From: Candidatus Altimarinota bacterium
Lineage (GTDB): Bacteria; Patescibacteriota; Gracilibacteria; 1-14-2-50-48-13
Assembly (NCBI GenBank): GCA_046314355.1
Contig: JBKBWQ010000001.1
Coordinates: 704,001-768,000 of the forward strand
DNA length: 64,000 nt
Direction of reading: 5' to 3'
A program made the position numbers and the translations under genes. The notes under the pieces were generated by a model. The model was given only the letters and a program-made list of their open reading frames with translations, did not search any database and was not told where the DNA came from. Of the stretch, positions 7,408-62,896 are shown piece by piece (within the stretch, counting starts at the first letter, position 1; each line of letters begins with the position of its first letter).

Positions 7408-8118
7408 ATGTCTTATAACCGAATACTGCTCAAGATATCCGGTGAAGCTCTTAAAGGCAAAAGAGATCACGGCATTGATCCAGCTTTTACACATGAGCTT
7501 GCCTTAGAAATACAAAAGATTCACAAAAAAAACATCCAGATCGCAATCGTCATTGGAGGTGGAAATATATTCCGCGGAGCTAAGGCTGAGGCGAACGGAA
7601 TGGATAGAACACTCGCAGATTACACCGGAATGCTCGCAACTATAATGAATGGACTCGCTCTTCAAGATGCCTTCAAAAAAACAGGCATTTCTTCACATGT
7701 TCTTTCTGCCCTCGATATACCGCAAGTCTGTGAAAACTATAATAAAAGAGAAGGAGTTGAGTACTTGGAAAAAGGAGAAATCGTGATCTGCGTCGGTGGT
7801 ACAGGAAATCCGTATTTTAGTACAGATTCCGCTGCGGCTCTGCGTGCAATAGAACTAGAATGCGATATCATTATGAAAGGAACAAAGGTAGATGGAGTCT
7901 ACGACAAGGACCCCATGCAATTCCCAGAAGCACACCTCTACACCACCCTGTCCTTTGATCAAGTCATAGAACAAAATATAAAAATTATGGATCAAACAGC
8001 CTTTACACTATGCAAGGAAAACAACATGCCCATAAAAGTATTTAACGTCACCCACCTAGAGAATATAGAACGAGCAATACTAGAGGACGGATTTGGAACT
8101 AAGATAAGTGGGAGTTAG
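7408..8118 (+). CDS. pyrH: UMP kinase
   Basis: RILLKISGEAL, IVIGGGNIFRG, GTGNPYFSTDSAAALRA, KVDGVYDKDP; followed by frr. Confidence 0.97.
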   Translation: MSYNRILLKISGEALKGKRDHGIDPAFTHELALEIQKIHKKNIQIAIVIGGGNIFRGAKAEANGMDRTLADYTGMLATIMNGLALQDAFKKTGISSHVLSALDIPQVCENYNKREGVEYLEKGEIVICVGGTGNPYFSTDSAAALRAIELECDIIMKGTKVDGVYDKDPMQFPEAHLYTTLSFDQVIEQNIKIMDQTAFTLCKENNMPIKVFNVTHLENIERAILEDGFGTKISGS

Positions 8119-8216
8119 GGCGCAGTAATTTGGCGCACATAATTGGACTCAATAATTAAGTAATTGAGATCAATTATTGCAGTCCAATAATGTGTCCCTA
8201 ATGATTGAGCCAAATT
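8116..8216. repeat. Modular palindromic intergenic element, copy A
   Basis: Core TAATTGAGATCAATTA at 8161-8176 flanked by GGCGCAC/GGACTC/GCAGTCC units; reverse-complement match to copies G and H; overlaps the pyrH stop codon. Confidence 0.85.
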
Positions 8217-8297
8217 CCCCTTTTCTTTCCTCCCCTTGAATATCCTCAATAGTCCTGTATAGTAGACCCACTATTATACATTTTTTCACATATCTGC

Positions 8298-8837
8298 ATG
8301 GATACATATATCAGCGCATTTCAGCAGAAATACCTAAAGACAGTAGAACATTTTAAAACTGAATTAGGTAAAGTACAGACTGGACGTGCGAGCGCATCTC
8401 TCGTAGAGCATATTAGCGTAGAGCTTTATGGACAGATGCAGCCGCTTAAAAACGTAGCTTCTATCTCCATCCCTGACTCAAAGACAATTTCTCTCCAGCC
8501 ATGGGATAAATCTGCTATTCAACCTATAGAAAAGGCTCTGCAGAAATCCGATATCAACCCTATGAACAATGGTGTGAGCATACTCATTACACTTCCTCCT
8601 CTTACTGAAGAGAGAAGAAAAGAGATGGTAAAAATCGTGAAGAAAATCGCTGAAGAAACAAAAGTAACTATCAGACAGCAGCGTCAGACAGCCATGGATG
8701 AAATCAAAAAAGATAAGGATGCTTCCGAAGATATGAAAAAAGGAGCAGAGAAAAAACTTCAGGAAAAAGTAGATGCTGCAAATAAAGAGATTGATGAGAT
8801 CTCCAAGAAAAAGGAGCAGGATATTATGACTATTTAA
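8298..8837 (+). CDS. frr: Ribosome recycling factor
   Basis: TGRAS, PPLTEERRKEMVK; follows pyrH. Confidence 0.95.
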   Translation: MDTYISAFQQKYLKTVEHFKTELGKVQTGRASASLVEHISVELYGQMQPLKNVASISIPDSKTISLQPWDKSAIQPIEKALQKSDINPMNNGVSILITLPPLTEERRKEMVKIVKKIAEETKVTIRQQRQTAMDEIKKDKDASEDMKKGAEKKLQEKVDAANKEIDEISKKKEQDIMTI

Positions 8838-8852
8838 TCAACCAATCGTTTC

Positions 8853-10055
8853 ATGGAAAGTTTTTTCTCAAGTATACCATCATTTTTATTAAGTGCTCTT
8901 GCGGTTATAGTTGTCTTCTCACTGGTCATTCTTATACACGAGCTTGGTCATTTTACCGCAGCAAAATGGTTTAAGGTAAAGGTTGAGGAATTTGGTATGG
9001 GATTACCTCCAAAGGCAAAAGTACTCTATAAGAAAGGTGACACTGAATATACATTGAACTGGATTCCTTTCGGAGGATTTGTGCGTATGTTCGGAGAATC
9101 TGATGTGGACGGTGAGCTTACAGATAATAAAGATAGCTTCTCTGCAAAGCCCGTATGGCAGCGTATAATTATTGCCTCTGCAGGCGTATTTATGAATTTT
9201 CTGCTAGCATATATACTTATAGTAATATTATTCCTTTCTGGATTTAAGCCACTTGCTATCATTCCAGATAATATGTATCCAATGAAAGAGAGTTCTTATC
9301 TCTTGAGTTCACAGTCCTTCGCAAAAGAGAAAGGTATCATTAAAGACAATCCAGGAAGTACGTCTCCCCTTGTTATTACGTCTATCACTCCTGATTCTCA
9401 GGCTAGCCGTCTAGGTATTTCAGACAACTCACGTATTATAACTATCAATGATATTCCAGCATCCACAATGGAGATCTTCACAAAAACTTTGAAAGATGCT
9501 CCTGCAGGATCAAATATTACCATTGCCCTTCAGACTTCTAACGGAGTATCACAGATGATTGCTTTTCCAAAGGAGAAGGACACTATTGGAGTGACCATTG
9601 AACAAGAAAGAGCCTATACAGCTACAGGTAAGGATTATAAACTCTCGCTTTCAGAGGCTCCAGTAGCTGCAGCTGTAGAGCTTAAGAGTCAGATTACATA
9701 TATGTTTAGCGCAGTAGGTCAGGTCTTTGGAGAAATATTTACTTCCTTCAGTCTACCGAAGGATATCGGTGGTCCAGTACAGATCGCGAGCACGATAGGT
9801 ACAGTAAGCAAAGAAGGTATCAGTGCACTTATTATTCTTTCGGTTCTACTTTCAGTGAATCTTGGAGTTTTCAATATACTCCCTATCCCTGCTCTAGACG
9901 GAGGTAGAATTCTATTCATGATATATGAAGTGATCACGCGTAAGCGTCCAAATCAAAAAGTAGAGACTTATATTCATGTGATCGGATATGTATTTATACT
10001 TGGTCTTATACTACTGGTAACATATCAGGATATTGTCAGGTTATTTGTGAAATAG
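8853..10055 (+). CDS. rseP: RIP metalloprotease RseP (M50 family, PDZ domain)
   Basis: HELGH, NWIPFGGFV, NILPIPALDGG. Confidence 0.9.
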   Translation: MESFFSSIPSFLLSALAVIVVFSLVILIHELGHFTAAKWFKVKVEEFGMGLPPKAKVLYKKGDTEYTLNWIPFGGFVRMFGESDVDGELTDNKDSFSAKPVWQRIIIASAGVFMNFLLAYILIVILFLSGFKPLAIIPDNMYPMKESSYLLSSQSFAKEKGIIKDNPGSTSPLVITSITPDSQASRLGISDNSRIITINDIPASTMEIFTKTLKDAPAGSNITIALQTSNGVSQMIAFPKEKDTIGVTIEQERAYTATGKDYKLSLSEAPVAAAVELKSQITYMFSAVGQVFGEIFTSFSLPKDIGGPVQIASTIGTVSKEGISALIILSVLLSVNLGVFNILPIPALDGGRILFMIYEVITRKRPNQKVETYIHVIGYVFILGLILLVTYQDIVRLFVK

Positions 10056-10170
10056 TAATTGGGCACGATACTTAGACTCAATAATTAGGGCTCATAATTT
10101 GCGTAATTGGGCTCAATAATTGAGTCTAATTAGTGATGCCCAATTATCGTGCGCCCAATTATGAGCCCTC
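10055..10170. repeat. Modular palindromic intergenic element, copy B (lacks the exact GAGCTC core)
   Basis: GTAATTGGGCAC...GACTCAATAATTAGGGCTC...TAATTGGGCTCAATAATTGAGTCTAATT...GTGCGCCCAATTATGAGCCCT; starts at the rseP stop. Confidence 0.85.
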
Positions 10171-10260
10171 TTTCAGAATTCCTTTCTTACCCCATTGCTT
10201 TTTACGAACTTTTATGTCATAATAATACGAATAACATAAATTCATAAAAACAAAATCCAT

Positions 10261-11517
10261 ATGTTTGGAATGGATCCATCGAGCATCATAACTACAATAA
10301 TGAATTATACAATTGGAGGTCTCCTCTCTCTTGTATCACTTCTTATTTGGGGATTTTTGTTCTATAGAAAAGATCCTGAAAGAAAAGATCTTACTATTCT
10401 ATCTTTCTGTGCAGGTGTACTTTCTGTAATTCCTATATTTACAGTACTTGGTAGTTTCGGATCAAGCCCTATTACCTTCGGACAGCTCAATATCGCAGGT
10501 CTGAACGTCTACACTCATATAGAAGCAATCGCAAATCATGGTGGTATGGAGCGTCTGCTCATCTATATCATTGTATGTATTCTCGCCTTCTTCCTGATGT
10601 ATGTCATCGTAGGAGTTATCATATTCATCCTTGATATTTTTTCAGGTGAACAAAGTGTACGGTCTTATGAGAAGATACTTTCAAGAAGTTTTGAAGCTCC
10701 ATTCATATTCATCACTTTAGGTATCATCATTGGTTTACTGGCATATTTCCTAGACTGGTCGCTCAATCATGTACTCTGGAAATCTTTGATGATTGGTGCG
10801 GTAGAAGAGTTTGCCAAACATCTCGTAGTACGTTTTTCAAATGAAAATAAATTTAGAAATATTAACGATGCGATAGAGTTTAGTATTATCGTTGCGCTCG
10901 GTTTCGCCTTTCTAGAAAATATTCTCTACTTTGTAGATAGAATCTGGCTTGCTCCATGTAATGCAGAAGAAATACGGCTTGGAGAATGTCTTTTTAATCC
11001 AAAGACAGGTACGTATATCCATCAAGTGGGCTATCTTCTTGTACCTTTCATATTTAGATCCTTTTTCTCTACGCTTGCCCATGTGATTTCATCAGGTCTA
11101 TTTGGATATTTTTATGGTCTGGCAACCTTTTCAAGTGAGGAAGTAAAAGATTATGCAAAAAGACCACAAAGCTTTCAGTTTAAAATACTTTCATGGTTTC
11201 ATAGGATCCTTCATCTAAAAGCTGATATCATTTATAGAGAGGAAAAAATACTTGAAGGTGCCATCATAGCAATGGTCTATCATGGAATCTTTGACTTCGT
11301 ACTGGATGCGGAAGTGGCAAAGTACTCCACAGAGCATTTTGGTATAAGCAGTATGGCACTCATCGCTCCGATGACCTTCGTCGGACTCTTTTACCTCTTC
11401 CACCTTTTCAATCAGCCCCGCAATAAGATTATATGGAATCAGAACCAGGTGCTTGGTGAACGTACAGAACTGCGTCTCATGAGAGAAGAATTGAAAAAGA
11501 AATTGAACATACAGTAA
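10261..11517 (+). CDS. PrsW-family intramembrane glutamic protease
   Basis: Multiple TM helices; VEEFAK, ALGFAFLEN, AHV and YHGIFD motifs. Confidence 0.8.
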   Translation: MFGMDPSSIITTIMNYTIGGLLSLVSLLIWGFLFYRKDPERKDLTILSFCAGVLSVIPIFTVLGSFGSSPITFGQLNIAGLNVYTHIEAIANHGGMERLLIYIIVCILAFFLMYVIVGVIIFILDIFSGEQSVRSYEKILSRSFEAPFIFITLGIIIGLLAYFLDWSLNHVLWKSLMIGAVEEFAKHLVVRFSNENKFRNINDAIEFSIIVALGFAFLENILYFVDRIWLAPCNAEEIRLGECLFNPKTGTYIHQVGYLLVPFIFRSFFSTLAHVISSGLFGYFYGLATFSSEEVKDYAKRPQSFQFKILSWFHRILHLKADIIYREEKILEGAIIAMVYHGIFDFVLDAEVAKYSTEHFGISSMALIAPMTFVGLFYLFHLFNQPRNKIIWNQNQVLGERTELRLMREELKKKLNIQ

Positions 11518-11533
11518 TCAAATATGTTTTAGA

Positions 11534-11574
11534 CATAAAAAAGCCGCTGCGTTAAACGCAGCGGCTTTTTTATG
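11534..11574. terminator. Bidirectional intrinsic terminator
   Basis: CATAAAAAGCCGCTGCGTT-A-AACGCAGCGGCTTTTTATG between convergent genes. Confidence 0.85.
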
Positions 11575-11583
11575 AATAGATGA

Positions 11584-11979
11584 TTATGCATCCATCATAT
11601 CACCTCCATCATTGAATGATGGTCGGCTGTTGTATCCTCCTCGGTCTCCTCCGAAATCTCGGCGTCCACCTCCGAATCCACCTCGATCTCCTCCTCCGAA
11701 TGAACGGCGAGGTCGATCTTCCATTGGTCGAGCCTGACTAACTCGTACAGTTCGTCCGAATGGTTCGCTCTTGTTGTCGAAGAATGCAATAGCATCTTCT
11801 ACCTGAGCTGGGTTTGCAAGAAGTACAAATCCGAATCCTTTGGACTCGCCTGTCATCTTGTTCATAATTACGCTAGCACCGTTCTCCGCAACTTCAAATC
11901 CTGCGTTAACAAATGCGTCGTGAAGTTCTTCTTTAGTAGTGGAATAAGGTAGTCCTCCTACGAAAAGCTTTGGTTCCAT
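11584..11979 (-). CDS. RRM-domain RNA-binding protein with Gly/Arg-rich tail
   Basis: RNP2 KLFVGGL, RNP1 KGFGFV and RGG repeats; start taken at ATG 11979. Confidence 0.9.
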   Translation of the reverse strand: MEPKLFVGGLPYSTTKEELHDAFVNAGFEVAENGASVIMNKMTGESKGFGFVLLANPAQVEDAIAFFDNKSEPFGRTVRVSQARPMEDRPRRSFGGGDRGGFGGGRRDFGGDRGGYNSRPSFNDGGDMMDA

Positions 11980-12261
11980 GTGACTTGGGATAAAGCTAAA
12001 AATATAGAATAGGCAGTCTTTCACCTCTTCCACCCAAATCTTTATGTATAAACGTAAAGAGCTTTGTAGTTTCGTGATTCTTATGGTTTCACGGGGGAAT
12101 CAAGATTCTGATACTTACCTATACTTATTGTACTCTATGTTAGCCCATTTGCAAGAGAAAGTCGGGGCTCAAGTAAGGAAGTAAGTAGTGATTCAGTAAT
12201 TAAGAATACCACTTAATGCTAGAAAAAACCTCCCTAATTCTTATGTCCTATTTCCCAATTC

Positions 12262-12867
12262 CTAATTCCTCTGAGCCTTTCTAATCCAGTACTTAGCCTC
12301 ATTTTCAGCTTTCTTCTCAATCCTTCTTATCCATTTTTGAAGTTTTTCTTCAGGTACTCTTCCAAATTTAGGTCCTATATACTCAAACATTCTCGGCCAT
12401 ACACCGCAATAAAAGAGAATAAATAGATTCCACACAACCGCAAACGGCATACCTATGCAAAGATATTTCCATGGTGAGCCTCCACCCGTCACAATAACTC
12501 TTCCTGTTTTACCTTTTAATAATCCCTGCGCACCCCATTTTGTATATTTAAAAGCAAAACCTGAAGCAAAATTTCTATCCACGAAGTTCTTGAGCGGAGC
12601 CGGCATTCCTCCCCACCAGAGCGGATGAAAAAAAGCAAGATGCTGTGCGTTATTAATTTTTTCCTGCATTGGAGTAAGATGTTCTGGATCGGCCTTTGTT
12701 TCACTTGGAATCTCAAAGCTCAGATATGGTTCCTGAGATTCTTTTTTATATAGATCCAGTAGCTCAACCGTATGCCCCGCTTCCTCAAGTTTTAATTTAT
12801 ATGCATCTGCGAGTACTCTCACAAATCCTTTTGAGCTTGGATGGGCAATAACAAGAAGTGCGTGCAT
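12262..12867 (-). CDS. NAD(P)H-dependent oxidoreductase (flavodoxin-like fold, MdaB/Ywro type)
   Basis: VIAHP, PLWWGGMPAPLKNFVDR, LLKGK...TGG. Confidence 0.85.
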   Translation of the reverse strand: MHALLVIAHPSSKGFVRVLADAYKLKLEEAGHTVELLDLYKKESQEPYLSFEIPSETKADPEHLTPMQEKINNAQHLAFFHPLWWGGMPAPLKNFVDRNFASGFAFKYTKWGAQGLLKGKTGRVIVTGGGSPWKYLCIGMPFAVVWNLFILFYCGVWPRMFEYIGPKFGRVPEEKLQKWIRRIEKKAENEAKYWIRKAQRN

Positions 12868-13061
12868 ATTTATCAAGAAATTATAGAAGTACCCGAGTTT
12901 GTATCAGAAATAATATAAGCTTATCATAAGTAAGTTAAAAGACATGTCAAAAGAATAATCATTCATGAGCATGTAAGCGCGATTCTACAAAATAAGAAGA
13001 TTTGATTCGACCTGTAGACAAATAAAGAGTATAGTAAACTATTACTTAATATATATATTAT

Positions 13062-13511
13062 ATGGCTATAAGAATCGGCGATCATATTCCCGCCTTCTCT
13101 CTCCCACTTCCAGACGGAAAGTCTTTTGATATATCAAAATCCACAGACAAACATCACGTTATATTTTTCTATCCAAGAGATGAGACTTCAGGATGTATTA
13201 AAGAAGCATGTTCTTTTAGAGATAACTACGAAACATTCCAAAAGGCCGGTGCAGAGGTAATAGGCATCAGTTCTGATTCTAAAAAATCTCATCAACTATT
13301 TCAGAGAAAACACCGTCTTCCCTTCAAGCTTCTAAGCGATGAAGCAGGAAAAGTAAGAAAACTTTTTGGGGTTCCGAAAACTCTTGGATTATTTCCTGGC
13401 AGAGTGACGTACATAGTTGATAAAGAAGGTGTTGTAAGACATATATTCAATTCACAATTTAATGCAGAGCAGCACGTAAAAGAAGCACTGGAAATACTTA
13501 GTAAGATGTAG
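13062..13511 (+). CDS. bcp: Peroxiredoxin (BCP/PrxQ)
   Basis: FFYPRDETSGCIKEACSFRD, GRVTYIVDKEG. Confidence 0.9.
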   Translation: MAIRIGDHIPAFSLPLPDGKSFDISKSTDKHHVIFFYPRDETSGCIKEACSFRDNYETFQKAGAEVIGISSDSKKSHQLFQRKHRLPFKLLSDEAGKVRKLFGVPKTLGLFPGRVTYIVDKEGVVRHIFNSQFNAEQHVKEALEILSKM

Positions 13512-13584: not shown

Positions 13585-13606
13585 GAAATATATTCACCAA
13601 ATTTCT

Positions 13607-17568: not shown

Positions 17569-17606
17569 TGGTAGATTATTTTTCTACTACTTCATATAGA
17601 TACCCC

Positions 17607-17688
17607 GTAGGGCTCAGAGTATGAGTGATAGCGTGCGTACTTAGTAGTGAGGGATAAATTTTTTTACGTCTCAATACAAAAAAAGAGC
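17607..17688 (-). repeat. tRNA-downstream conserved motif, copy 1 (inverted relative to 23029-23106)
   Basis: Exact 22-bp match AGACGTAAAAAAATTTATCCCT (17650-17671, minus strand) plus similar flanks ending GAGCCCTAC. Confidence 0.8.
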
Positions 17689-17742: not shown

Positions 17743-17817
17743 TGGCTTCGGGGGAGGGATTCGAACCCTCGACCTGCCGGTTAACAGCCGGATGCTCTAC
17801 CGCTGAGCTACCCCGAA
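17743..17817 (-). tRNA. tRNA-Asn(GTT)
   Basis: Cloverleaf TTCGGGGTAGCTCAGCGGTAGAGC...CGGCT-GTT-AACCG...GGTTCGAATCC...CCCCGAAGCCA with encoded CCA. Confidence 0.97.
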
Positions 17818-22640: not shown

Positions 22641-22744
22641 CAGATGAGCTTAAGTTTCTAAATTATCTTGAGAAAATAAGAGTTCTACACTAGAATCTAG
22701 TAACTAGATTCTAAAAACTTGATTCTAGTAGGCACAGCCATCCT

Positions 22745-22830
22745 GCCCGGGTGGTGAAATCGGTAGACACGCGGGACTTAAAATCCCGTTCCCTATGGGA
22801 GTGCGGGTTCGATTCCCGCCCCGGGCACCA
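22745..22830 (+). tRNA. tRNA-Leu(TAA)
   Basis: GCCCGGGTGGTGAAATCGGTAGACAC...GGGACT-TAA-AATCCC, long variable arm, GGTTCGATTCC, ends ACCA. Confidence 0.97.
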
Positions 22831-23028
22831 TTCTTCGCTTCTCACGAAGCTACGAATGGCACAGCCAGAATGGAATTAATCTTCGCAGGCGAAGATTTTT
22901 ATATATAGAGCGAAGAATGTCCCTCGTAGCCTACACCTGAACTGTAAGTTGCTTGTTCATAATGGCGAAGAGGGATGCCCAAGCATAAAGCATTGATGTA
23001 TTTTGGTACGCCTCTGAGTTTGTAGTAA

Positions 23029-23106
23029 CTCTTTTTTATACTAAGACGTAAAAAAATTTATCCCTAAGTACTAACTACTCCCACCCACACTCGCGCCGAG
23101 CCCTAC
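23029..23106 (+). repeat. tRNA-downstream conserved motif, copy 2, followed by a CTCACTA-type low-complexity tract to ~23170
   Basis: AGACGTAAAAAAATTTATCCCT at 23044-23065 is identical to the reverse complement of 17650-17671. Confidence 0.8.
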
Positions 23107-23247
23107 CTCTCACTACTCACTGCTCACTACTCCCACTATCACTCACACTCCCGAGCCCTCGAGCCTCTACACTTAATTCCTCTACCTCTTCCCTTTTCTC
23201 TACTTTCCACTTATACTAGATACATATTTGTAAATATCAGCAGTTTC

Positions 23248-27154: not shown

Positions 27155-27217
27155 ATTATTTTAAATACTATCATAACATTGTAACACACTTTAAGTAAAA
27201 ATGCCTTATTACTGGAA

Positions 27218-27250
27218 TATAAAAACAGCCCTGTCGGGGCTGTTTTTATA
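27218..27250. terminator. Intrinsic terminator after rny
   Basis: TATAAAAACAGCCCTG-T-CGGGGCTGTTTTTATA. Confidence 0.8.
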
Positions 27251-27260
27251 TTCTTTACTA

Positions 27261-33566: not shown

Positions 33567-33687
33567 ATAGGTAGATAATATTGGAAGAAATATGTAGTAT
33601 TGTTGTAATCTTTTTGGACTTCATAGGCAAGACAAAAAATTGATTAAGCGTATACAAAAAATGTTCTATAGTTTTTTAAAAGTATAC

Positions 33688-33718
33688 AAATAGAGATCTC
33701 CAGAAGAGATCTCTATTT
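33688..33718. terminator. Hairpin between the STAS gene and dnaA
   Basis: AAATAGAGATCTC-CAGAA-GAGATCTCTATTT. Confidence 0.6.
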
Positions 33719-36849: not shown

Positions 36850-36886
36850 TAAAAAGACCAGAGATTACAATCTCTGGTCTTTTTAT
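36850..36886 (+). terminator. Intrinsic terminator after rplT
   Basis: TAAAAAGACCAGAGATT-AC-AATCTCTGGTCTTTTTA. Confidence 0.85.
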
Positions 36887-40625: not shown

Positions 40626-40692
40626 AGTGCCTGCGTAAGAAATAATACGTGGTCTATTGTATAGGAAGGAGAGGAAGGAGTAAATGAAAGAA

Positions 40693-40814
40693 GTAATTGA
40701 GTAATTAAGTAATTAAGTAATTGGACTCAATAACTGGGCACTATAATTGGGCTGCAATAATTGAGCTCAATTATTGAGTCCAATGATAAGAGCCCAATAA
40801 TGTGCCCCAATTAC
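40693..40814. repeat. Modular palindromic intergenic element, copy C
   Basis: Core TAATTGAGCTCAATTA at 40758-40773, preceded by GTAATTRA octamers and GGACTC/GGGCAC/GGGCTGC units. Confidence 0.9.
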
Positions 40815-43238: not shown

Positions 43239-43362
43239 ATACTACTGAATGATAAAGCTATTCTCCGGCATAATACATGCACTCGGAGCAGAAAATCCGA
43301 ACTGTAACACATAAAGTACAGCAAAAAGCAGTATAGGAAAAAGAAGTACTAGAAATATATGC

Positions 43363-44467: not shown

Positions 44468-44517
44468 GAAGTTTATGAAAGACTCTTTAGAATTCTAAAG
44501 AGTCTTTCATAAACTTC
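44468..44517. repeat. Perfect 50-bp palindrome at terminator position
   Basis: GAAGTTTATGAAAGACTCTTTAGAA|TTCTAAAGAGTCTTTCATAAACTTC. Confidence 0.9.
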
Positions 44518-45610: not shown

Positions 45611-45964
45611 CTACTTTCTTAAAAGTAGTTCTTTAATGAGTACTGAAAGCAATCTGGAAACTTGCTCTAAACTATTTTTTAAATATGATATCTGCTCAAT
45701 CGAAACAATACTTGTATCTTGAATAAGATCTAGAAGACTTGCACATTCGTAAGTAGAGCCGCGAGCAATAACATAAAAGTTTTTTCTATCATTCGGAGAT
45801 AATTTTCCAGTACCTTCAGCAATATTAATCACCATGCTTACTAATGCTCTTTGAAGTTGATCACGTATAATTGGCGTAAGCTTATAAAAAGGGATCTTAT
45901 TTTGAATAACTTGATAGGTTTCTCTCGCCTTCTTATATGCAATAAGTTTCTCAAAATCAAACAT
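45611..45964 (-). CDS. Four helix bundle protein (23S rRNA IVP/Avd-like family)
   Basis: FEKLIAYKKA, DQLQRA..S...NIAEG, FYVIARGS..EC. Confidence 0.9.
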   Translation of the reverse strand: MFDFEKLIAYKKARETYQVIQNKIPFYKLTPIIRDQLQRALVSMVINIAEGTGKLSPNDRKNFYVIARGSTYECASLLDLIQDTSIVSIEQISYLKNSLEQVSRLLSVLIKELLLRK

Positions 45965-46127
45965 AGCATCAAATATAATTTATATTAAAACTATGCTCCC
46001 ACTTTTTTATGAGACAAATATATTATTCAACTACTGTTCGTAAAAAATAACTACAAGTGTAAAACTTGATTCTACTAGTGACTAGATTCTAGTGACAGTC
46101 ACTAGTTACTAGTCCAGCTTCGCTGGA

Positions 46128-46887: not shown

Positions 46888-46926
46888 TAAAAAAGAGATA
46901 CACCTGATGGTGTATCTCTTTTTTAT
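46888..46926. terminator. Bidirectional terminator
   Basis: TAAAAAAGAGATACACC-TGAT-GGTGTATCTCTTTTTTA. Confidence 0.85.
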
Positions 46927-53041: not shown

Positions 53042-53111
53042 AATAATGATGCAATTGAAATACGCGATGAATAGTATAGGAAAAAGAAGAAAGGCTCAAG
53101 GGGGAAAAAAT

Positions 53112-53249
53112 AGGGCTCGAGTAATTGAGTAATTGGGGCTCATAATTTGGCGCACATTATTGGGCTGCAATAATTGAGCTCAATTATTTAATGATGTGAG
53201 CCAAATTACTGAGCCTAATTATTGAGCCCAGTTACCGAGCCCCAATTAC
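53112..53249. repeat. Modular palindromic intergenic element, copy D (between divergent engB and ddl promoters)
   Basis: Core at 53171-53186; AGGGCTCG left end; four GAGCC(C/T/A) units on the right arm. Confidence 0.9.
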
Positions 53250-54428: not shown

Positions 54429-54491
54429 AATAATTGAGCTCAATTACTGAATGATGTGAGCCCAATTATTGAGCCCTAATTACCGAGCCCC
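54429..54491. repeat. Modular palindromic intergenic element, copy E (half element)
   Basis: Core at 54431-54446 plus a right arm nearly identical to the right arm of copy D. Confidence 0.88.
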
Positions 54492-55223: not shown

Positions 55224-55322
55224 ATTGGACTCAATAATTGAGCTCAATTATTGAGTCCAATTATACTACCCAATGTACTAAATTCAATTACCAATTACTC
55301 AATTACTATTTACTTAATTACT
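55224..55322. repeat. Modular palindromic intergenic element, copy F
   Basis: Perfect 38-bp palindrome ATTGGACTCAATAATTGAGCTCAATTATTGAGTCCAAT (55224-55261) followed by AATTAC-type repeats. Confidence 0.88.
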
Positions 55323-57057: not shown

Positions 57058-57059
57058 AG

Positions 57060-58622
57060 TTAGTTGTGTTGAACTTTAGTACTAGCAAAGTTTTTGCTTA
57101 TTTTCTTCAGAGCTTCCATCTGAGTAAGTAAAGCCTGCAGTTCTTCAGTCAAATGTGTAAGCTGTCCACCGATCACTTCTTCATAATCAGTGAGATTCTT
57201 GGCATTGATTTGCTGCGTTTGAAGTTTTATAGCTAACTCTTTGGTTTCCTTCTGTTTAGCTAGCATATTGGCATATTGAGCTGCATAATCACCAGAAGCA
57301 ATATTTGCAGGTGCGACCGCATCAGAAGCATTATTACTACCTGCTACAGCATTCCACATCTTTCCAAGCAGTCCAATAAGATCAGGATCAGTAAAGTCTG
57401 CCTTATCCACCCTAGGAACGATAGGAACCCATGAAATCTGCAGAAAGTTATCCGGCACTTCAAACTTTAAGTCCTGCCACCCAAAGCTAAAGATAGCCCG
57501 AGGTTCATTTTTCAGCTGCAGATTCTGTGCAGAGAGCTCTGATGTAGCATCAGAAAGCTTTGTAAGACTTGTTCTCAATGCAGGACTATCTAGGCCTACT
57601 CGTCTTGTGGTAAACATAGTGCCTGCTTCATCAGCAAATCCTGTTTGAAAATAGACTTTAATACAGAAAGATTCCCAAAGACAATTCCACTTATCTAAGT
57701 TTTCAACAGTCCCATTTATACTTTGCTGAGCATCATTCAGGATTTTTTGAGCAGCACTCAGAATATTTGATGTATCTTTTTTTAGAACAGCTTCGTTGTC
57801 AAAAGATGGATCTGGTGTAGTCTTTGCTCTTTCAAAACGTGCAAAACTCTTTGAAATAGCTTCCTTCTCCGGCTCAGAGAAGGTCTGCGTACTAGCTGTC
57901 ACAGGAGCTGCACCGGGCAATGGACAAAATCCAAGAGTATTCGGATCAGTATTTGAGAAAGAAAAACTCTTCATAGTATCCGCAAGGCTTGAAGCGGGTA
58001 CTTGTACATACTCAGGTTTATACCAGTTTCCTGTGAGATATTTTGCATCTGGAGATATATCCCTTGTCCATCCTGGAAGTTCTCGGTCCTTTGCACCATT
58101 AATTTTTTCCTTCAATAGTGCGATATCGTTCAAAAGATCAAATCCTGAATTTTTGGTATCGCCGTCAGAAAATACATTTTGATACCGTATGCTTGAAATT
58201 TTCTGTCCAAAGCGCTCATTTAAGGCAGTAATTTCCTCACATTTTTTCTGATAATGTGTACTGTCATTAATTCCCTGAGTAGTTCCCTGCACACTTGATA
58301 CCCCACCTGCAGTTTTCGGCAGACAGTTTTGAGGTAGAAGGCGTGAGAGAGCACTATCTGTAAATTTTGTCAGTCCTTCTTTTCTATCATGTTCAAGCAG
58401 ACGCTGCATTTCGATCATAGTCTGTTTTGGAACAAATTCACGCACCTCCTTATCTATTCTGAAATACTGAGATTTCAGAGGAGAGTCCAGTAATGAAACC
58501 CCTGGGGTATTCTTTAGAAGAGCAAATAGTTTATCATCTTGTTCATCTGCAAAAGCAGTATGAGAAAACAATACTCCGATTCCAAGGACGATACCTAGTT
58601 GTAGAAGTAGTTTATATGACAT
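57060..58622 (-). CDS. Secreted helical hypothetical protein
   Basis: Start at ATG 58622 (MSYKLLLQLG...AFA-DE signal peptide); C-terminal coiled coil. Confidence 0.7.
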   Translation of the reverse strand: MSYKLLLQLGIVLGIGVLFSHTAFADEQDDKLFALLKNTPGVSLLDSPLKSQYFRIDKEVREFVPKQTMIEMQRLLEHDRKEGLTKFTDSALSRLLPQNCLPKTAGGVSSVQGTTQGINDSTHYQKKCEEITALNERFGQKISSIRYQNVFSDGDTKNSGFDLLNDIALLKEKINGAKDRELPGWTRDISPDAKYLTGNWYKPEYVQVPASSLADTMKSFSFSNTDPNTLGFCPLPGAAPVTASTQTFSEPEKEAISKSFARFERAKTTPDPSFDNEAVLKKDTSNILSAAQKILNDAQQSINGTVENLDKWNCLWESFCIKVYFQTGFADEAGTMFTTRRVGLDSPALRTSLTKLSDATSELSAQNLQLKNEPRAIFSFGWQDLKFEVPDNFLQISWVPIVPRVDKADFTDPDLIGLLGKMWNAVAGSNNASDAVAPANIASGDYAAQYANMLAKQKETKELAIKLQTQQINAKNLTDYEEVIGGQLTHLTEELQALLTQMEALKKISKNFASTKVQHN

Positions 58623-58623
58623 A

Positions 58624-59595
58624 TTATTTACCTTTATTTTTATCTCCGTCCACGGAGGAATTTGGAAGTTTATAGCGCAGCTGATCCATGACTCGAGCCA
58701 TTCTATCAAATTGAGTAGTGGTTTCTTTTAGCTGCTTCTTCATGTAGGTGTATTGAAGATGCTGAGGGTAGCTTAGAAAAAATTCCTGATACCACTCCAG
58801 CATGTTGTCATCTACCATATCAGCAAGCTTACTTTCCTGAGCTTTAAACGTAGTCAGGTTTACTCCTGATAGTGCTGCTCCAAGGTTTGTACCACCAGAG
58901 GTATTCTTTTGTTCTTTAGGCGCGTTATTTGAAAGGATAGTCAGAGCATCCTTGTAGTTTCTTGTTTCATAAAACAGACGGAAACGCAGTATAGTAAGAG
59001 GATTTTCTTCATCAGGAATCGCTACTTCTGCCGGAGAGCTACCTGCCGCTTTCTTCTTGTCCTCTGCCTGCTTGACCCGGAATTCACTCACACTTTTCTT
59101 TATACCTGCACGCTCAGCATCAGTATACTGAAAAGAATATTCAGGAAGATCCTTATCTGATGCCTGCTTTTTACCAAGATTCTCACAAATACCTGCAGAA
59201 GCATCTCCCCCATCAAGCACTGCTAGAGCAGAACATATCTGGTATTGAGTAAAATAAATATCCTTCGCTATTGTTGCAGAAAGATTCAAACACTCAGCAG
59301 ACATGGAATATGGTTTTGGATCAAACTCATCAGGAGTAAGTACTTTACTCATCTTATTGTCGTAATAGTATTGTACCGCAAGAACCGAAGCATCCACATA
59401 ACAGCTTTGCGCCTGTGCATGATAATTTCTTAGGTATTGAAATTTGGTAGAAGTATCAAAACCTGCGTCCAAAATTCTACTATATCCATCTCCTCTTGGT
59501 GGTTCTACGGCTTTCGAAGTAGAAAAAGCATTATATGAGAGTAATGTACATTGCAGAATACCTATAATAAAAATTGTTTTTGTTGTGAGTTTCAT
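58624..59595 (-). CDS. Secreted helical hypothetical protein
   Basis: Signal peptide; Cys pairs; C-terminal amphipathic helix YPQHLQY...QLRYKLP. Confidence 0.7.
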   Translation of the reverse strand: MKLTTKTIFIIGILQCTLLSYNAFSTSKAVEPPRGDGYSRILDAGFDTSTKFQYLRNYHAQAQSCYVDASVLAVQYYYDNKMSKVLTPDEFDPKPYSMSAECLNLSATIAKDIYFTQYQICSALAVLDGGDASAGICENLGKKQASDKDLPEYSFQYTDAERAGIKKSVSEFRVKQAEDKKKAAGSSPAEVAIPDEENPLTILRFRLFYETRNYKDALTILSNNAPKEQKNTSGGTNLGAALSGVNLTTFKAQESKLADMVDDNMLEWYQEFFLSYPQHLQYTYMKKQLKETTTQFDRMARVMDQLRYKLPNSSVDGDKNKGK

Positions 59596-59604
59596 AGTTG
59601 TAGA

Positions 59605-60276
59605 TTATTGACCTGCGTTTTGACCGGTAATCAGATAATTAACTCCTTGGATTATCTTATCTAGCCGCCCCCTTACTATTTCAAAATCCTCATTGAAGCT
59701 TCTCAGAGCAAGATTGAGATCCTCAATAGCCTTTGCATAAGCATAGGTCTTTTTAGTATTCATATCCCAGCTCGCAAAACTTAGAATGATATTCTCATAC
59801 TTCTCCCGTATATTTTCAACCTTTAATATACACTGATCCCGCAGTGTCTTTCTTTGGAGCTCATTTGTATTATTCAAAGGGCTTTTATCAGTTGGGGCTA
59901 CCTTTTCAGGACGGCATGCAGTAACTCTCTGGCTTGCAGGGATAGGAGCGTCTGGACTGAGATTTCTCTGGCATATTTCTTCAGCATCCGTAGTGAGATT
60001 GATGAGACCAGTTTTAGCACGTATGAGAAGCTCCATAGTGGGAACATCTGCAAACTGACCATACTCTGTCAGGGTGCCCTCAAAAGCAGTGGTCCTTTGA
60101 GCAAAGATAGTATCTATGCCAGCACTGCATTTCTGAGCCTCAGGACTGAATGCCTGAGCATTTTGAGTTACAGGCGTATCCTGTGCTTTGACCGACTGCA
60201 CCAAAAAAAACAATACCACAAGTACCTGTAGAAAAATAATCGCGGCTAGAGAAAGTTGTTGGAAAAATTTACCCAT
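59605..60276 (-). CDS. Secreted helical hypothetical protein
   Basis: Signal peptide (VKA-QD); four Cys; C-terminal heptad helix. Confidence 0.7.
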   Translation of the reverse strand: MGKFFQQLSLAAIIFLQVLVVLFFLVQSVKAQDTPVTQNAQAFSPEAQKCSAGIDTIFAQRTTAFEGTLTEYGQFADVPTMELLIRAKTGLINLTTDAEEICQRNLSPDAPIPASQRVTACRPEKVAPTDKSPLNNTNELQRKTLRDQCILKVENIREKYENIILSFASWDMNTKKTYAYAKAIEDLNLALRSFNEDFEIVRGRLDKIIQGVNYLITGQNAGQ

Positions 60277-60342
60277 AGAATATGTAGAAATACATTCATA
60301 CTATTTTATCAAAGGCAAAGCTAAAAAGCCATTACTCCCCCT

Positions 60343-61059
60343 TTACAAATTGTTGTATTTCTCGAAGAAGATATGTTCTTTCATAATTCCCTGGGATAAA
60401 AGAAGATTTTTCACATCGTCGATCATACTTCCGCTTCCACAAATATAGAAATCCGTATCTTCCGCATGTTCATTATTTTTCTCAAGATAATGAGTCACTC
60501 GTCCTACAAAGTTACTGCACTCTCCTTCAGGTCTTGAGACGCAAGGAGCAAAAGTAAAATGCTCTCCTTCCTTTGAAGAAAAGTACTCTATGTAGCAGAG
60601 ATCCTTCAAAAAACTCACTCCAAAAAGCAAAGTTGAATGTCTCGTATCTCCTTTACTCCACATATCCTCGAGCATGGCTTTGAAAGGTGCAACTCCAGTG
60701 CCTGTAGCAATAAATACAATAGGATGGTCATTCTGCTGAAGAGTAAACCTTCCCGCCGGTCCCACAAACTGAATACTCTCTCCTATTTGAATATGCGGGA
60801 AATACCCATCTGTCGCTCTTCCCTCGGGAATACGCTTGTAGCATAGCTCAAATCTTCTACTGCTGTCAGGACCAGAGGAAATAGAATACTGACGCATCAC
60901 CATCTTCTCATCCTCATGTCGTGCCGGAACCTCTATAGATACAAACTGCCCTGCCTGGTATGAAAAATCAAACTGTGGTGGTACCTCAAATACAAGCTCA
61001 AAAACATCATCTGTTAATACTCTCCTTTCAACCAATACTGCTTCTTTCTTAAAAGACAT
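60343..61059 (-). CDS. FAD/NAD(P)-binding oxidoreductase (ferredoxin-NADP reductase-like)
   Basis: AGQF, RQYSISS, GPAGRF, IATGTGVAPF, YICGSG, FFEKY; start ATG 61059. Confidence 0.9.
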   Translation of the reverse strand: MSFKKEAVLVERRVLTDDVFELVFEVPPQFDFSYQAGQFVSIEVPARHEDEKMVMRQYSISSGPDSSRRFELCYKRIPEGRATDGYFPHIQIGESIQFVGPAGRFTLQQNDHPIVFIATGTGVAPFKAMLEDMWSKGDTRHSTLLFGVSFLKDLCYIEYFSSKEGEHFTFAPCVSRPEGECSNFVGRVTHYLEKNNEHAEDTDFYICGSGSMIDDVKNLLLSQGIMKEHIFFEKYNNL

Positions 61060-61132
61060 AGTCCATGTACATAAAATAAGTACGGACATAGTAGCAAAAG
61101 AGGGAGAAGGGATCAAGGGGGGAATTGGGGAA

Positions 61133-61256
61133 AGGCTCGATGATTAGGGCTCATTATTGGGCTCAATCATTAGGGGCTCTTATAATTGGGCTGCAATAAT
61201 TGAGCTCAATTATTTAATTATTGAGTCCAATTATGTGCGCCCAATTACCGAGCCCT
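61133..61256. repeat. Modular palindromic intergenic element, copy G
   Basis: Core at 61197-61212; right arm TTATTGAGTCCAATTATGTGCGCCCAATTACCGAGCCCT ends 2 nt from a stop codon. Confidence 0.9.
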
Positions 61257-61258
61257 TT

Positions 61259-62245
61259 CTACATCGTGAAAAACAATCCATTCACCGTTGTCAGAAAGAG
61301 CTTAATAAGGAATAGGAGTGCGAGTCCCATAAGCACCTGCTGAAGCTGCTTATAGACTTTTTTAACTGCCTCTTCCCCGCTACCTCCTCCTTTATACATA
61401 ATCTCTACTCCGCAATAAATGATCATTCCTACACCAGCGGCAATAAGAAACGGCTGGATCAGAAAGAAGAAATACCCCACAAGGCTGAAAATAATATCAA
61501 ATCCTCCCGTAGTCTTAAGAGCGATAGCATTACAGTATTTCACGTTACCTGCTTCCGATGCCTTCTTTACATCAATAAACGGCTTTGGAGTTTTACCATC
61601 AAGTGTCACTCCGGTAGAGTATCCGCCATCGGGTATGATACTGATACAGAGTGCATTTGTAGTAGCCTTGATAGTCTCAAGAGACACTGGATCAATAAAC
61701 TCCTGACATGCATATGAGCTTGCCTCAGTATTTATAGTATTACTTGTTCCTGTAGCTGCAGTATTTCGCTCTCCGGCTCTTACTGCTAATTCAAACAATT
61801 CGCAGGGTCCCATGAGCAGTTTTTTGGTACAAGAGATTACTCCTGATTTATTACTTCCAGTGATTCCAGGAGAGCTGCAAATTCCCTCATTACCAAAAAT
61901 CTGCTGAGGTTTTTGACAAGAGTTCGCTTGACCTGGGTTTGGATCACAACCAATTTTAGTCTGCATTAGTGGTGTATTTTCAATATCATTCAGCTCTTGT
62001 CTTGCTTGATCAAACATAGCATCGGCTTCTCTCGCAGCTCGATCGAGTGAAGTACCTTCAAAAGATGTATCCATTCCAGATATGCCAGATCCAAGGCTAT
62101 TAATATTGCTAGAGGACTGGTCAAAACCATTTTGAAAAAACGCGGCTTTTGTCGTAAAGTTATTTAAAGAAAGTGTACTAACTATTGTAAATACTATTAA
62201 AAGAAAAATTCTCGAACATAATGTGATACTCTTTGTTTTCATCAT
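61259..62245 (-). CDS. Pilin-like protein (VirB2/TrbC-type C-terminal two-TM unit) with a Cys-rich N-terminal domain
   Basis: Signal peptide, about ten Cys, C-terminal GVGMIIYCGVEIM...KKVYKQL...GLALL pattern. Confidence 0.6.
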   Translation of the reverse strand: MMKTKSITLCSRIFLLIVFTIVSTLSLNNFTTKAAFFQNGFDQSSSNINSLGSGISGMDTSFEGTSLDRAAREADAMFDQARQELNDIENTPLMQTKIGCDPNPGQANSCQKPQQIFGNEGICSSPGITGSNKSGVISCTKKLLMGPCELFELAVRAGERNTAATGTSNTINTEASSYACQEFIDPVSLETIKATTNALCISIIPDGGYSTGVTLDGKTPKPFIDVKKASEAGNVKYCNAIALKTTGGFDIIFSLVGYFFFLIQPFLIAAGVGMIIYCGVEIMYKGGGSGEEAVKKVYKQLQQVLMGLALLFLIKLFLTTVNGLFFTM

Positions 62246-62688
62246 GTAGTCTGCAAAAAGCTAAATACAACTCTCGCAATCGTAAAAGAAGAGAAGGAGA
62301 CTATTATACCAATCACAGCATTCTTGATCGCAGTCTGCCCTTTCTTGTTGTCTTTTCCTTGGTTGAGAATGTACTGATATCCTGCATAAATGATCCCCAG
62401 AAGCCCTAAGGTTCCTAAGATATTAAAGAAAAAACCAAGCATGTACTGAAGATAAAAAATGACATCTTCAAGTCCCATACGTCCGCACTTGATCTTCAAT
62501 GCAAGCCATTTACTTGGATGCGGATCTACTTTTAAACGGTTAATCAGCTCAATACAGTTCGCAGGTACATCTCCTCCCAAGTCCTGAGTCGGAAGAATAG
62601 ACGTAGCAATAGCCGATGCAGATGGCATCGAAGCAGTATTCAGCAGACAGAGCGAGACAAGGAATGAAAAGAGAAAACGCTTGAACAT
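62242..62688 (-). CDS. VirB2/TrbC-type pilin-like protein
   Basis: Signal peptide; LGIIYAGYQYI...KKGQTAIKNAVIGIIV; ATGA coupling to the next gene. Confidence 0.7.
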   Translation of the reverse strand: MFKRFLFSFLVSLCLLNTASMPSASAIATSILPTQDLGGDVPANCIELINRLKVDPHPSKWLALKIKCGRMGLEDVIFYLQYMLGFFFNILGTLGLLGIIYAGYQYILNQGKDNKKGQTAIKNAVIGIIVSFSSFTIARVVFSFLQTT

Positions 62689-62748
62689 GAATGGAATGAG
62701 AAACTGAGATTCTCTTTAGTATACCAGAAAGGAAGAGAAAGTGGAAGG

Positions 62749-62896
62749 GGGCAATAATTGGGCTCAATAATTAAGGCTCGTTATTGTGCTCTTGTTATTG
62801 GACTCAATAATTAGGGGCTCATTATTGGGCTGCACGAATTGAGCTCAATTACTTAATTATTGAGTCCAATTATGTGCACCCAATTACTTGAGCCCT
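62749..62896. repeat. Modular palindromic intergenic element, copy H
   Basis: Core AATTGAGCTCAATT at 62837-62850; right arm nearly identical to copy G; ends 1 nt from a stop codon. Confidence 0.9.

Follow-up and report, generated by a model that had tools for sequence, protein, structure and literature searches.

The question raised by this stretch of DNA (the window; 64 kb of a 1.62-Mb contig from a Candidate Phyla Radiation bacterium related to Gracilibacteria/Peregrinibacteria) is whether the repetitive, palindromic sequences in its spacers form one family, how they came to be dispersed and what effect they may have. The original prediction described eight such elements, and all eight were found where it had placed them (Table 1). 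They measure 63–148 nt, have a G+C content of 26–41% and together make up 1.4% of the window (911 nt) and 12% of its spacer DNA. Every element is intergenic, in a window of which only 10.9% is spacer, and together they occupy 8 of the 47 spacers of at least 30 nt. Six lie between genes of the same direction, E lies in a convergent spacer and D in a divergent one. Searched with an nhmmer profile of the eight elements, the 64 kb yields all of them and no further significant match, the next matches having E values of 4.8, 6.1 and 9.5. Two fragments had also been proposed: that at 6160–6177 has no profile match, and that at 12164–12200 is without statistical support, adjoining the match at 12189–12256 with E = 6.1. 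The predicted density of one copy per 8 kb holds as a window average, but the spacing is uneven, with five of the eight elements within 53–63 kb and the stretch from 10.2 to 40.7 kb free of them. Two spacers may hold decayed relatives or remnants. One, which includes the second of these fragments, contains a 7-nt array at 12233–12270; in the other, upstream of obg, a CTCACTA 7-nt array (23109–23132) is followed by a pyrimidine tract and then by TATACT.

Table 1. Elements, possible relatives and an adjoining promoter-like tract in the 64-kb window
Feature	Coordinates	Strand	Length (nt)	Context and remarks
Element A	8116–8216	+	101	pyrH–frr spacer; inverted relative to G and H; one-mismatch core at 8161
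Element B	10055–10170	.	116	Between rseP and PrsW-like gene; without core; orientation ambiguous
Element C	40693–40814	-	122	Between SLH-domain gene and cysS; exact core at 40758
Element D	53112–53249	-	138	Divergent engB/ddl spacer; exact core at 53171
Element E	54429–54491	-	63	Convergent spacer between ddl and YgjP-like gene; exact core at 54431
Element F	55224–55322	+	99	Exact core at 55235
Element G	61133–61256	-	124	Between two - strand genes; exact core at 61197
Element H	62749–62896	-	148	Between CAP/YkwD-like and T4SS-pilin-like genes; one-mismatch core at 62836
Possible decayed relative	12140–12290	.		GGGGCTC unit, scattered AATT-type spacers, CCTAATT 7-nt array; E = 6.1, not significant
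Possible remnant or relative of element arm	23090–23220	+		Spacer upstream of obg; two CGAGCCC end-motifs
Pyrimidine-rich tract and promoter-like hexamers	8214–8263	+		Between A and frr; hexamers read by eye

The elements are assembled from a unit of 13–14 nt, which consists of an A+T-rich spacer of the AATAATT/TAATT type and a G-rich block of the GGGCTC/GGACTC/GGGCAC type. Direct units form one arm of each element and inverted units the other, the two arrays meeting at or next to TAATTGAGCTCAATTA, a perfect 16-nt palindrome that we refer to as the core. As predicted, the core is exact in five of the eight elements and has one mismatch in A and H; in its place B has only a two-mismatch unit junction at 10104. 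Allowing up to two mismatches, the core occurs nine times in the window against 0.10 expected, and none of 100 shuffles reached nine. The unit, AATTGGGCTC, with at most one mismatch, occurs 32 times where 4.32 matches would be expected, and every occurrence lies in one of the eight elements or touches one. A list of units matched to exact patterns holds six single matches outside the elements and gives the order '+' then '-' in seven of the eight; in A, only two left-arm units are listed, with which the right arm pairs when the element is folded. Pooled self-identity in the elements reaches 0.46 at a lag of 13 and 0.43 at a lag of 14, compared with 0.28–0.30 for 25 other spacers, and Tandem Repeats Finder reports arrays of period 13–14 in every element except A. 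This order and period bear out the modular build first proposed, with short units inverted between the arms. Some elements have added 8-nt sub-units: the cysS-proximal end of C carries four copies of AAGTAATT, and F consists of a perfect 38-nt palindrome (55224–55261), a decayed arm and an array of the 8-nt TCAATTAC.

Each copy, as single-stranded DNA or RNA, is predicted to fold into a long imperfect hairpin whose arms pair over 17–54 bp. The longest is that of D, with 54 pairs and −63.6 kcal/mol (RNA, + strand). The z scores of the RNA folds range from −4.6 to −8.8 for the 16 strands of the eight elements, with none of 200 shuffles as good, and those of the eight DNA folds from −5.3 to −7.4. 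Both strands of every element thus beat the shuffled sequences, in keeping with the hairpins originally envisaged.

Five elements start 0–6 nt from an upstream stop codon (the gaps are −3 nt for A, −1 for B, 6 for F, 2 for G and 1 for H); the first unit of A supplies the TAG stop of pyrH, B starts with that of rseP, and E lies 4 nt from the stop of the YgjP-like gene. In a strict scan, the spacers of A, B, E, F and G have no canonical hairpin-plus-T-run terminator, and the sole match in any element-containing spacer is at 62698–62714, outside H; the spacer of C also has a normal terminator, seen by eye and missed by the scan. Eight of the 12 element-free convergent spacers have a terminator in the same scan, and a ninth is visible by eye.

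On the other side, five of the eight elements lie directly upstream of the next gene's promoter-like region of the pyrimidine-tract/TATACT type, the hexamers being read by eye. Beside A, the pyrimidine tract at 8214–8238 contains CCCCTTGA and is followed by TTGAAT, 16 nt and TATAGT, which look promoter-like by eye. Equivalent + strand purine tracts flank C (40661–40684), D (53098–53116), G (61093–61113) and H (62726–62757). The motif is present in element-free spacers too, for example at 43330 and 23203, and could be promoter sequence of the host instead of a component of the element; a promoter consensus scan of the window, with 36 sites found against 29.8 expected, was uninformative. An internal marker (GGACTC, core, TTGCAG(C/T)CC) points towards the start of the downstream gene in A, C, G and H. 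This polarity rule is weak, being obeyed by four of five informative copies: F is by alignment the reverse complement of C and is therefore reversed relative to its own flanking genes, B is ambiguous, and D and E are uninformative.

These positions bear on the reading that a single abundant protein with sequence-specific DNA binding (such as a global regulator, nucleoid protein or domesticated transposase) occupies the elements as arrays of sites, and that the elements act in this way on neighbouring promoters or on DNA topology. The 16-nt palindrome would then be the site of a dimer and the 13–14-nt units arrays of half-sites. Besides the adjoining promoter-like regions, the perfect palindrome kept exactly in five copies and the regular spacing of the units favour it, both strands fold equally well, as fits a feature of duplex DNA, and GGGCTC/GAGCCC is nearly confined to spacers, with one occurrence in coding DNA against 6.7–14 expected, 18 in the elements and six in other spacers. 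The neighbouring genes, however, are without common function (pyrH/frr, rseP, cysS, engB/ddl and pilin-like genes), E has gene ends on both sides and D gene starts, neither the number of units nor their register is fixed, and no candidate protein was identified. Moreover, copies have long idiosyncratic stretches in common, including an 8-nt insert and the order of variant units, which would not be expected from convergence on a motif. We regard binding-site arrays as an unlikely explanation.

The strong hairpins and the starts at or close to upstream stop codons raise a further alternative, that these are RNA-level elements selected for transcript structure, as long terminator, attenuator or processing hairpins, or as small RNAs. 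REP and STRR hairpins are thought to act in this way, according to passages of PMC3733652 and PMC2670836, and E, whose convergent spacer is without a canonical terminator, folds on its - strand into a 14-bp stem with a U-rich tail behind it, immediately past the end of the YgjP-like gene. Against an RNA-level function, being transcribed gives a strand no advantage in folding: the transcribed (-) strands of G and H fold at −48.6 and −47.2 kcal/mol, about 10–13 kcal/mol worse than their + strands (−58.2 and −59.9 kcal/mol). In addition, D lies in a divergent spacer, F is reversed, none of the eight elements is called as a hairpin-plus-T-run terminator in the strict scan, and none has a match in Rfam even at E ≤ 1. 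Selection for transcript structure seems to us a quite improbable explanation.

The kinship between copies carries the argument further. Local alignment gives identities of 83–89% over 60–128 nt between copies at distant loci whose flanks are unrelated. G and H are identical at 110 of 128 positions, and the reverse complement of A matches G at 89 of 101 and H at 93 of 108; E, a half element made of the core and one arm, is identical to the core and right arm of D at 55 of 62 positions (89%). These alignments uphold the mosaic relations predicted for G and H, for A as their reverse complement and for E as part of D. The outermost GAGCCC-type block marks the end of the G–H and A–G homology. Copies at unrelated loci have in common their unit order and idiosyncratic inserts, including the 8-nt insert after the core; the number of units differs between copies. 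That nothing mobile is involved, and that a short A+T-rich/GGGCTC motif tolerated only outside genes slipped independently at each site, is very improbable: tandem arrays of 7, 8, 13 and 14 nt do occur in the elements and in other spacers (the two 7-nt arrays noted above), unit numbers vary, and the window offers neither transposase nor target duplication, but A, G and H, up to 54 kb apart, are 86–88% identical over 101–128 aligned positions with the same variant-unit order and insert, D and E and likewise C and F are related, and independent slippage would not recreate such higher-order arrangements. Identity of this extent between unrelated flanks indicates dispersed copies of common ancestors, and we conclude from the sequences that the copies descend from these and were copied into new spacers. 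Enrichment, profile, alignment and folds together bear out the prediction that the modular, imperfectly palindromic elements of these spacers are a real dispersed family.

The copying may have been carried out by a trans-acting enzyme encoded outside the window, or by recombination, and slippage or unequal exchange among the tandem units would be the simplest reason why copies differ in unit number. Consistent with the original prediction, no transposase-like gene was found in the window in searches with NCBIfam (64 ORFs), Pfam (37) and PHROGs (23). A four-helix-bundle gene, which had been suggested as a possible partner if flanked by the units, lies at 45611–45964 and by eye has no unit in its flanks. 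Direct repeats of at least 3 nt were sought within 6 nt of either side of the ends, which are A+T-rich and fuzzy. The best are 4 nt in B and F, 3 nt in C and D and 0 nt in A, G and H, and 2000 random position pairs give 3–4 nt in 75% of cases, so that no target-site duplication of 3 nt or more beyond chance is present in these seven elements.

The elements had been called REP/BIME/MITE-like. In a BIME, entire palindromic units are clustered, alternate in orientation and are separated by set linker motifs; here the units are direct repeats within each arm and orientation switches once per element, which speaks against membership. BOX elements have the module layout boxA-boxB(n)-boxC, and Correia/NEMIS elements have a fixed TIR and a TA duplication. 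BOX modules are longer and of three distinct kinds, and their layout differs from the two mirrored arrays of one short unit seen here. As described in passages of PMC3733652 and PMC3184786, a REP is a single G+C-rich stem-loop of about 35 nt (20–40 nt, range 21–65), usually with a GTAG or CGTC tag unpaired at one end and often linked to a RAYT transposase. The present elements are multi-unit, too long and too A+T-rich for a REP, and none of the eight contains GTAG, CGTC or GACG within itself or 10 nt either side. CTAC occurs within these limits only three times: once in the decayed arm of F (55266), and once each next to F (55329) and G (61259), where the gene upstream has its stop region. No RAYT (Y1 transposase) gene is present among the ORFs of the window. 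Unlike in a REP, the building block is a non-palindromic unit directly repeated within an arm. The same passages give the likenesses to the REPs and BIMEs of Enterobacteria, Pseudomonas and Stenotrophomonas: these are dense, non-coding extragenic palindromes of mosaic, variable composition, able to form larger folded structures and mostly found in same-direction or convergent spacers just downstream of coding regions, as are seven of the eight elements here, D being the exception.

Inverted repeats, a stable stem-loop and a length mostly below 200 nt, as in MITEs, are all present, and in size class, inverted arms and very stable predicted stem-loops the elements resemble Correia/NEMIS, ERIC, Nezha and Chunjie, which in the account of PMC3184786 are also intergenic and without coding capacity, some lying beside promoters or gene 3' ends. 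According to that account, Correia/NEMIS elements carry outward promoters and an IHF site. Five of our elements adjoin hexamers that look promoter-like by eye. Unlike those of typical MITEs, the arms are internally repetitive and variable in unit number, and no parent IS is known; the lack of target-site duplication in the seven elements examined also speaks against membership. The BOX elements of Streptococcus pneumoniae, in the same account, are similarly modular, non-autonomous and dispersed in spacers, with variable tandem internal modules and the potential for transcribed stem-loops. The STRR arrays of filamentous cyanobacteria, as far as outlined in PMC2670836, likewise consist of very short tandem spacer units that jointly form hairpins, with suggested roles in transcript stability or coupling between genes. 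The STRR unit, however, is 7 nt long, whereas here the main unit has 13–14 nt, sub-arrays of 7–8 nt occur at some ends only, a 16-nt palindromic core is conserved and copies are homologous over about 100 nt. With no tag, no alternation and no target-site duplication, 'REP/BIME/MITE-like' describes the appearance of the elements but not their membership.

The original statement that no named family fits has also held. At the gathering score, Rfam identifies only three tRNAs in the window, and the nine matches at E ≤ 1 overlap no element. The elements have no match in plasmid and phage collections, and no description of such elements was found in the literature. A scan for the exact core in 185,579 species' genomes, the source genome not among them, returned 56 chance singletons and no array, so the family is at best narrow.

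Overall, the best explanation, to which we assign a probability of roughly 0.6, is that these are lineage-restricted, non-coding, non-autonomous dispersed intergenic repeats, likely acting as 3' hairpins. Since five elements start beside an upstream stop codon and five precede a promoter-like region, the likeliest effect would be to give the upstream transcript a 3' hairpin that stabilises it or terminates it weakly, although D, in its divergent spacer, is downstream of no gene. By analogy with REP, ERIC and Correia-type repeats, the hairpin would separate the upstream transcript from the next promoter. Such effects have precedent, in that relevant parts of PMC3184786 describe REPs and BIMEs as affecting mRNA stability and binding gyrase and IHF, and MITEs as carrying promoters and sitting at 3' ends. 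We conclude that the elements are a real, lineage-restricted repeat family, like REP, MITE and BOX sequences in logic and unusual in architecture: a new family within a familiar kind of bacterial repeat.

Analysis of the intergenic DNA revealed a real, lineage-restricted family of dispersed, modular, palindromic elements, eight of which (A to H) lie in the window. They are built around a core, the 16-nt perfect palindrome TAATTGAGCTCAATTA, and two arms, each an array of a 13-14-nt unit made up of an A+T-rich spacer and a G-rich block. Reading of all eight stretches bore out the copies and the architecture of the original prediction, together with its tally of five exact cores and two with one mismatch; with up to two mismatches, the core occurs nine times in the window compared with 0.10 expected, a number equalled in none of 100 shuffles. 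The unit AATTGGGCTC, with at most one mismatch, is present 32 times against 4.3 expected, and all 32 matches are inside or touching the eight elements. In seven of the eight, the units of an exact-pattern list run forward in the left arm and in reverse in the right; in element A, the left arm alone matched this list, and both arms nonetheless pair in the fold. The 13-14-nt period is evident in self-identities of 0.46 and 0.43 at lags of 13 and 14, versus about 0.29 in 25 other spacers. Tandem Repeats Finder reports arrays of this period in seven of the eight elements, and both C and F carry 8-nt arrays at one of their ends. A profile built from the eight copies recovers those eight and has no other significant match in the 64 kb; two additional fragments that had been put forward are without statistical support.

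Pairwise local alignments of the elements, each taken with 150-nt flanks, are listed in the table. The G-H and A-G alignments stop at the outermost GAGCCC-type block, and the flanks further out are unrelated. Copies have in common both an 8-nt insert that follows the core and the succession of different unit variants, features that neither independent slippage nor convergence on a binding motif would yield. Judged by these alignments, the elements are true copies and not look-alikes. Arms of different copies contain different numbers of units, a variation for which tandem-unit slippage or unequal exchange would be the simplest explanation.

Elements of the family and other features of the window, with local alignments given as identical/aligned positions
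Feature	Position (strand)	Neighbouring genes or setting	Gap from upstream stop codon (nt)	Local alignment
Element A	8116-8216	pyrH/frr	-3	A (reverse complement) with G, 89/101; with H, 93/108
Element B	10055-10170	rseP/PrsW-like	-1	
Element C	40693-40814	SLH-domain gene/cysS		with F (reverse complement), 85/103
Element D	53112-53249	engB/ddl, divergent		with E, 55/62
Element E	54429-54491	ddl/YgjP-like gene, convergent		
Element F	55224-55322		6	
Element G	61133-61256	between two - strand genes	2	with H, 110/128
Element H	62749-62896	CAP/YkwD-like/T4SS-pilin-like	1	
Promoter-like match	55260-55287 (-)	decayed arm of F		
Stop-free peptide	61148-61312 (+)	across G		
Pyrimidine tract/TATACT	23203-23217 (+)			
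Pyrimidine tract/TATACT	33681-33695 (-)			
Pyrimidine tract/TATACT	43330-43344 (-)			
Pyrimidine tract/TATACT	53073-53087 (-)			
Pyrimidine tract/TATACT	62718-62732 (-)			
A/T-flanked palindrome	5022-5070			
A/T-flanked palindrome	11534-11574			
A/T-flanked palindrome	27215-27253			
A/T-flanked palindrome	36850-36885			
A/T-flanked palindrome	44468-44517			
A/T-flanked palindrome	46888-46925			
~80-nt repeat	17606-17687	just 3' of tRNA-Asn (17743-17817, -)		
~80-nt repeat	23028-23107 (reverse complement)	3' of tRNA-Leu (22745-22830, +)		
ACTAG-rich 14-nt array	22689-22730	5' side of tRNA-Leu		
ACTAG-rich 14-nt array	46073-46114	3' side of tRNA-Pro		
7-nt array, CCTAATT x5.4	12233-12270			
7-nt array, CTCACTA x3.4	23109-23132			
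Four-helix-bundle protein gene	45611-45964 (-)			
dnaA	32079-33566 (-)			

On a gene map made with NCBIfam and Pfam, the window is 89% coding, with 47 spacers of 30 nt or more that sum to 7,522 nt. Every one of the eight elements falls in a spacer: the flanking genes run in the same direction for six, converge for E and diverge for D. Their combined length of 911 nt accounts for 1.4% of the window and 12% of its spacer DNA, the latter share being notable because genomes of the Candidate Phyla Radiation (CPR) are small and, as here, densely coding. The spread of the copies is uneven: five are located in 53-63 kb and none from 10.2 to 40.7 kb. Elements A, B, F, G and H lie against the stop codon of the upstream gene, and in A and B the TAG stop comes from the first unit of the element. 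Element C differs in that a normal terminator hairpin, recognised by eye, separates it from the upstream gene.

The symmetry of the elements is imperfect, and a direction can be read from a marker consisting of GGACTC, an optional 8-mer, the core and TTGCAG(C/T)CC. In A, C, G and H this marker faces the downstream gene's start, and in D it faces engB; it is reversed in F and ambiguous in B, and E is a half element. This polarity rule, followed by four of the five informative copies, is suggestive only. Beyond the far side of the marker come a pyrimidine-rich tract, a TATACT/TATAGT-like hexamer and then the start of the next gene, the promoter calls next to elements having been made by eye. The window has three occurrences of the string CCCCTTGA, one each at the marker-side end of A, D and G. 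With up to one mismatch, the pyrimidine tract plus TATACT is found 29 times in the window, element-free spacers included, versus 8.2 expected, and may represent a host promoter class rather than a part of the element; it precedes a number of gene starts, whether or not an element is there, and the table lists five examples. A consensus scan of 52-64 kb was uninformative, giving 36 promoters against 29.8 expected and 13 terminators against 8.5. A separate observation concerns F, which contains a perfect 38-nt palindrome: the promoter-like match in its decayed arm (TTGAAT, 16 nt, TATAAT; 10/12 positions) would make this palindrome part of the YgjP-like gene's 5' leader.

Folded as RNA, the elements beat all 200 shuffles in 16 of 16 cases (eight elements on two strands; z from -4.6 to -8.8), and the eight DNA folds have z values from -5.3 to -7.4. 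An element acting as RNA would be expected to favour the transcribed strand, and no such preference was found for the eight elements on both strands. The neighbours of G and H are - strand genes, and the fold of that strand is some 10-13 kcal/mol less favourable than that of the + strand; E folds better as the - strand. The lack of strand preference, like the divergent spacer in which D lies, speaks against an element that works at the RNA level only. On its - strand, E forms a 14-bp stem with a U-rich tail directly after the YgjP-like gene. The convergent spacer of E is without a canonical bidirectional terminator by scan, and such a terminator is present in eight of 12 element-free convergent spacers, with a ninth recognised by eye; counts from the stricter terminator scan are rough, as at least two terminators that can be seen by eye, at 17.5 kb and 40.85 kb, escaped it. 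The perfect 17-25-bp palindromes between A and T runs that are listed in the table are bidirectional intrinsic terminators, the usual signal of element-free convergent spacers.

By the family definitions of Di Nocera et al. (PMC3733652) and of a review by Delihas (PMC3184786), the elements do not have the size, composition or GTAG/CGTC tag of REP sequences, and they are not built of alternating palindromic units as BIMEs are. They share inverted arms and a stem-loop with MITEs; target-site duplication, a further MITE trait, was not found around them. In logic, they resemble REP/BIME in being dense, mosaic and downstream of genes, BOX in having variable tandem modules, Correia-type MITEs in lying next to promoters, and also cyanobacterial STRR hairpins (PMC2670836). 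Two mirrored arrays of one 13-14-nt unit round a conserved 16-nt palindrome are unlike REP, BIME, MITE, BOX and STRR, and the architecture is unusual among repeats of familiar type. An Rfam search, suggested with the original prediction, gave nothing on the elements at the gathering score or at E ≤ 1, and no family was recognised. The core string appears in no paper of the literature searched, and in the literature on CPR lineages and repeats we found no report of a dispersed repeat family in CPR bacteria; for repeats, the passages searched in the paper on the Peribacteria genome (PMC4736985) name just a single direct repeat region and some short repeats at the origin.

Integron attC sites were dropped as an explanation: the elements flank housekeeping genes, and there is no integrase in the window. 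There is likewise no case for a link to restriction sites, GAGCTC being undepleted in genes (12 versus 17 expected) and only GGGCTC/GAGCCC depleted. The latter occurs once in coding DNA, where 6.7 (order-3 Markov) to 14 (order-1) would be expected; outside coding DNA, 18 occurrences are in elements and six in other spacers.

Other repeats were noted in the window. Two stretches of about 80 nt are alike (local alignment score 69) and have the same orientation relative to the tRNA genes that they adjoin; the repeat begins GTAGGGCTC, has a T/A run at its end, and could be a terminator or processing signal that both tRNA genes share, or else represent a second family of small repeats. The ACTAG-rich 14-nt arrays, beside tRNA genes, are tandem and palindromic. 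The 7-nt arrays, whose spacers also hold GGGCTC/CGAGCCC, may be decayed relatives of the element arms.

The exact core was sought in a collection of species-representative genomes amounting to 596 Gb, from which the source genome is absent, since the five cores of the window itself were not returned. The scan gave 56 loci in unrelated organisms, one site each. Fifty-four have no further unit within 90 nt, and the remaining two, from the same MAG, are the same sequence in opposite orientation with one extra motif touching the core. These loci were rejected as members of the family and are attributed to chance, an estimated ~140 sites being expected for a 16-mer in 596 Gb; a family with the exact core was found in no species representative of the collection. 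Element H with its flanks had no match in plasmid and phage collections (blastn, 'distant' mode). The stop-free six-frame peptide across G was used to look for ORFs that gene callers might have placed over other copies; it gave no candidate among 5.8 billion predicted proteins, a result that says little because ORFs over such elements are seldom called.

No transposase-like gene was found among the ORFs of the window, in line with the original prediction that the window holds no cognate transposase; the search covered 64 ORFs with NCBIfam, 37 with little or no NCBIfam annotation with Pfam, and 23 still unannotated with PHROGs. A four-helix-bundle gene flanked by units had also been proposed as something to look for. 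A gene for a four-helix-bundle/23S rRNA-intervening-sequence-type protein (TIGR02436, PF05635) is present, with no unit in the flanks read.

The RNase Y encoded in the window has a match to itself on a contig of 1,619,055 nt. Its closest relatives, at 96%, 93% and 80-82% identity, are all from metagenome assemblies; a cluster at 73% identity includes a Candidatus Gracilibacteria protein, and matches at 51-56% are from Candidatus Peregrinibacteria, Gracilibacteria or Patescibacteria. The window is consistent with the standard genetic code, and an alternative code (table 25, TGA = glycine) was rejected, real genes being neither merged nor lengthened by it. The stop codons of 60 ORFs are TGA in one case, TAA in 46 and TAG in 13, and TGA seems simply to be avoided. 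GC skew is negative throughout the 64 kb, with no switch near dnaA.

In its behaviour, the family would most likely be non-autonomous and REP/MITE/BOX-like, and it probably plays a secondary part at the ends of transcripts and beside promoters; we infer both the mechanism of its spread and its function. Mu- and Tn7-type transposons have multi-site ends, and a bolder reading, which we consider unlikely, likens the unit arrays to these. The elements would be the collapsed ends of an undescribed type of CPR transposon, with arms that are arrays of a 13-14-bp transposase-binding unit, and they could serve in addition as polar insulator cassettes, terminating one transcript and abutting the next promoter. 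Were this so, they would constitute the first mobile repeat family described in the reduced genomes of the CPR and would provide a handle on genome rearrangement and transcription wiring in these bacteria. As for the non-autonomous, REP/MITE/BOX-like family that we favour, mobility would point to an unrecognised mobilising enzyme, and the copies would then serve to type strains and to mark assembly problems in CPR metagenome genomes. If the elements act on transcripts or promoters, they would offer a rare view of gene-expression signals in organisms that do not grow on their own.
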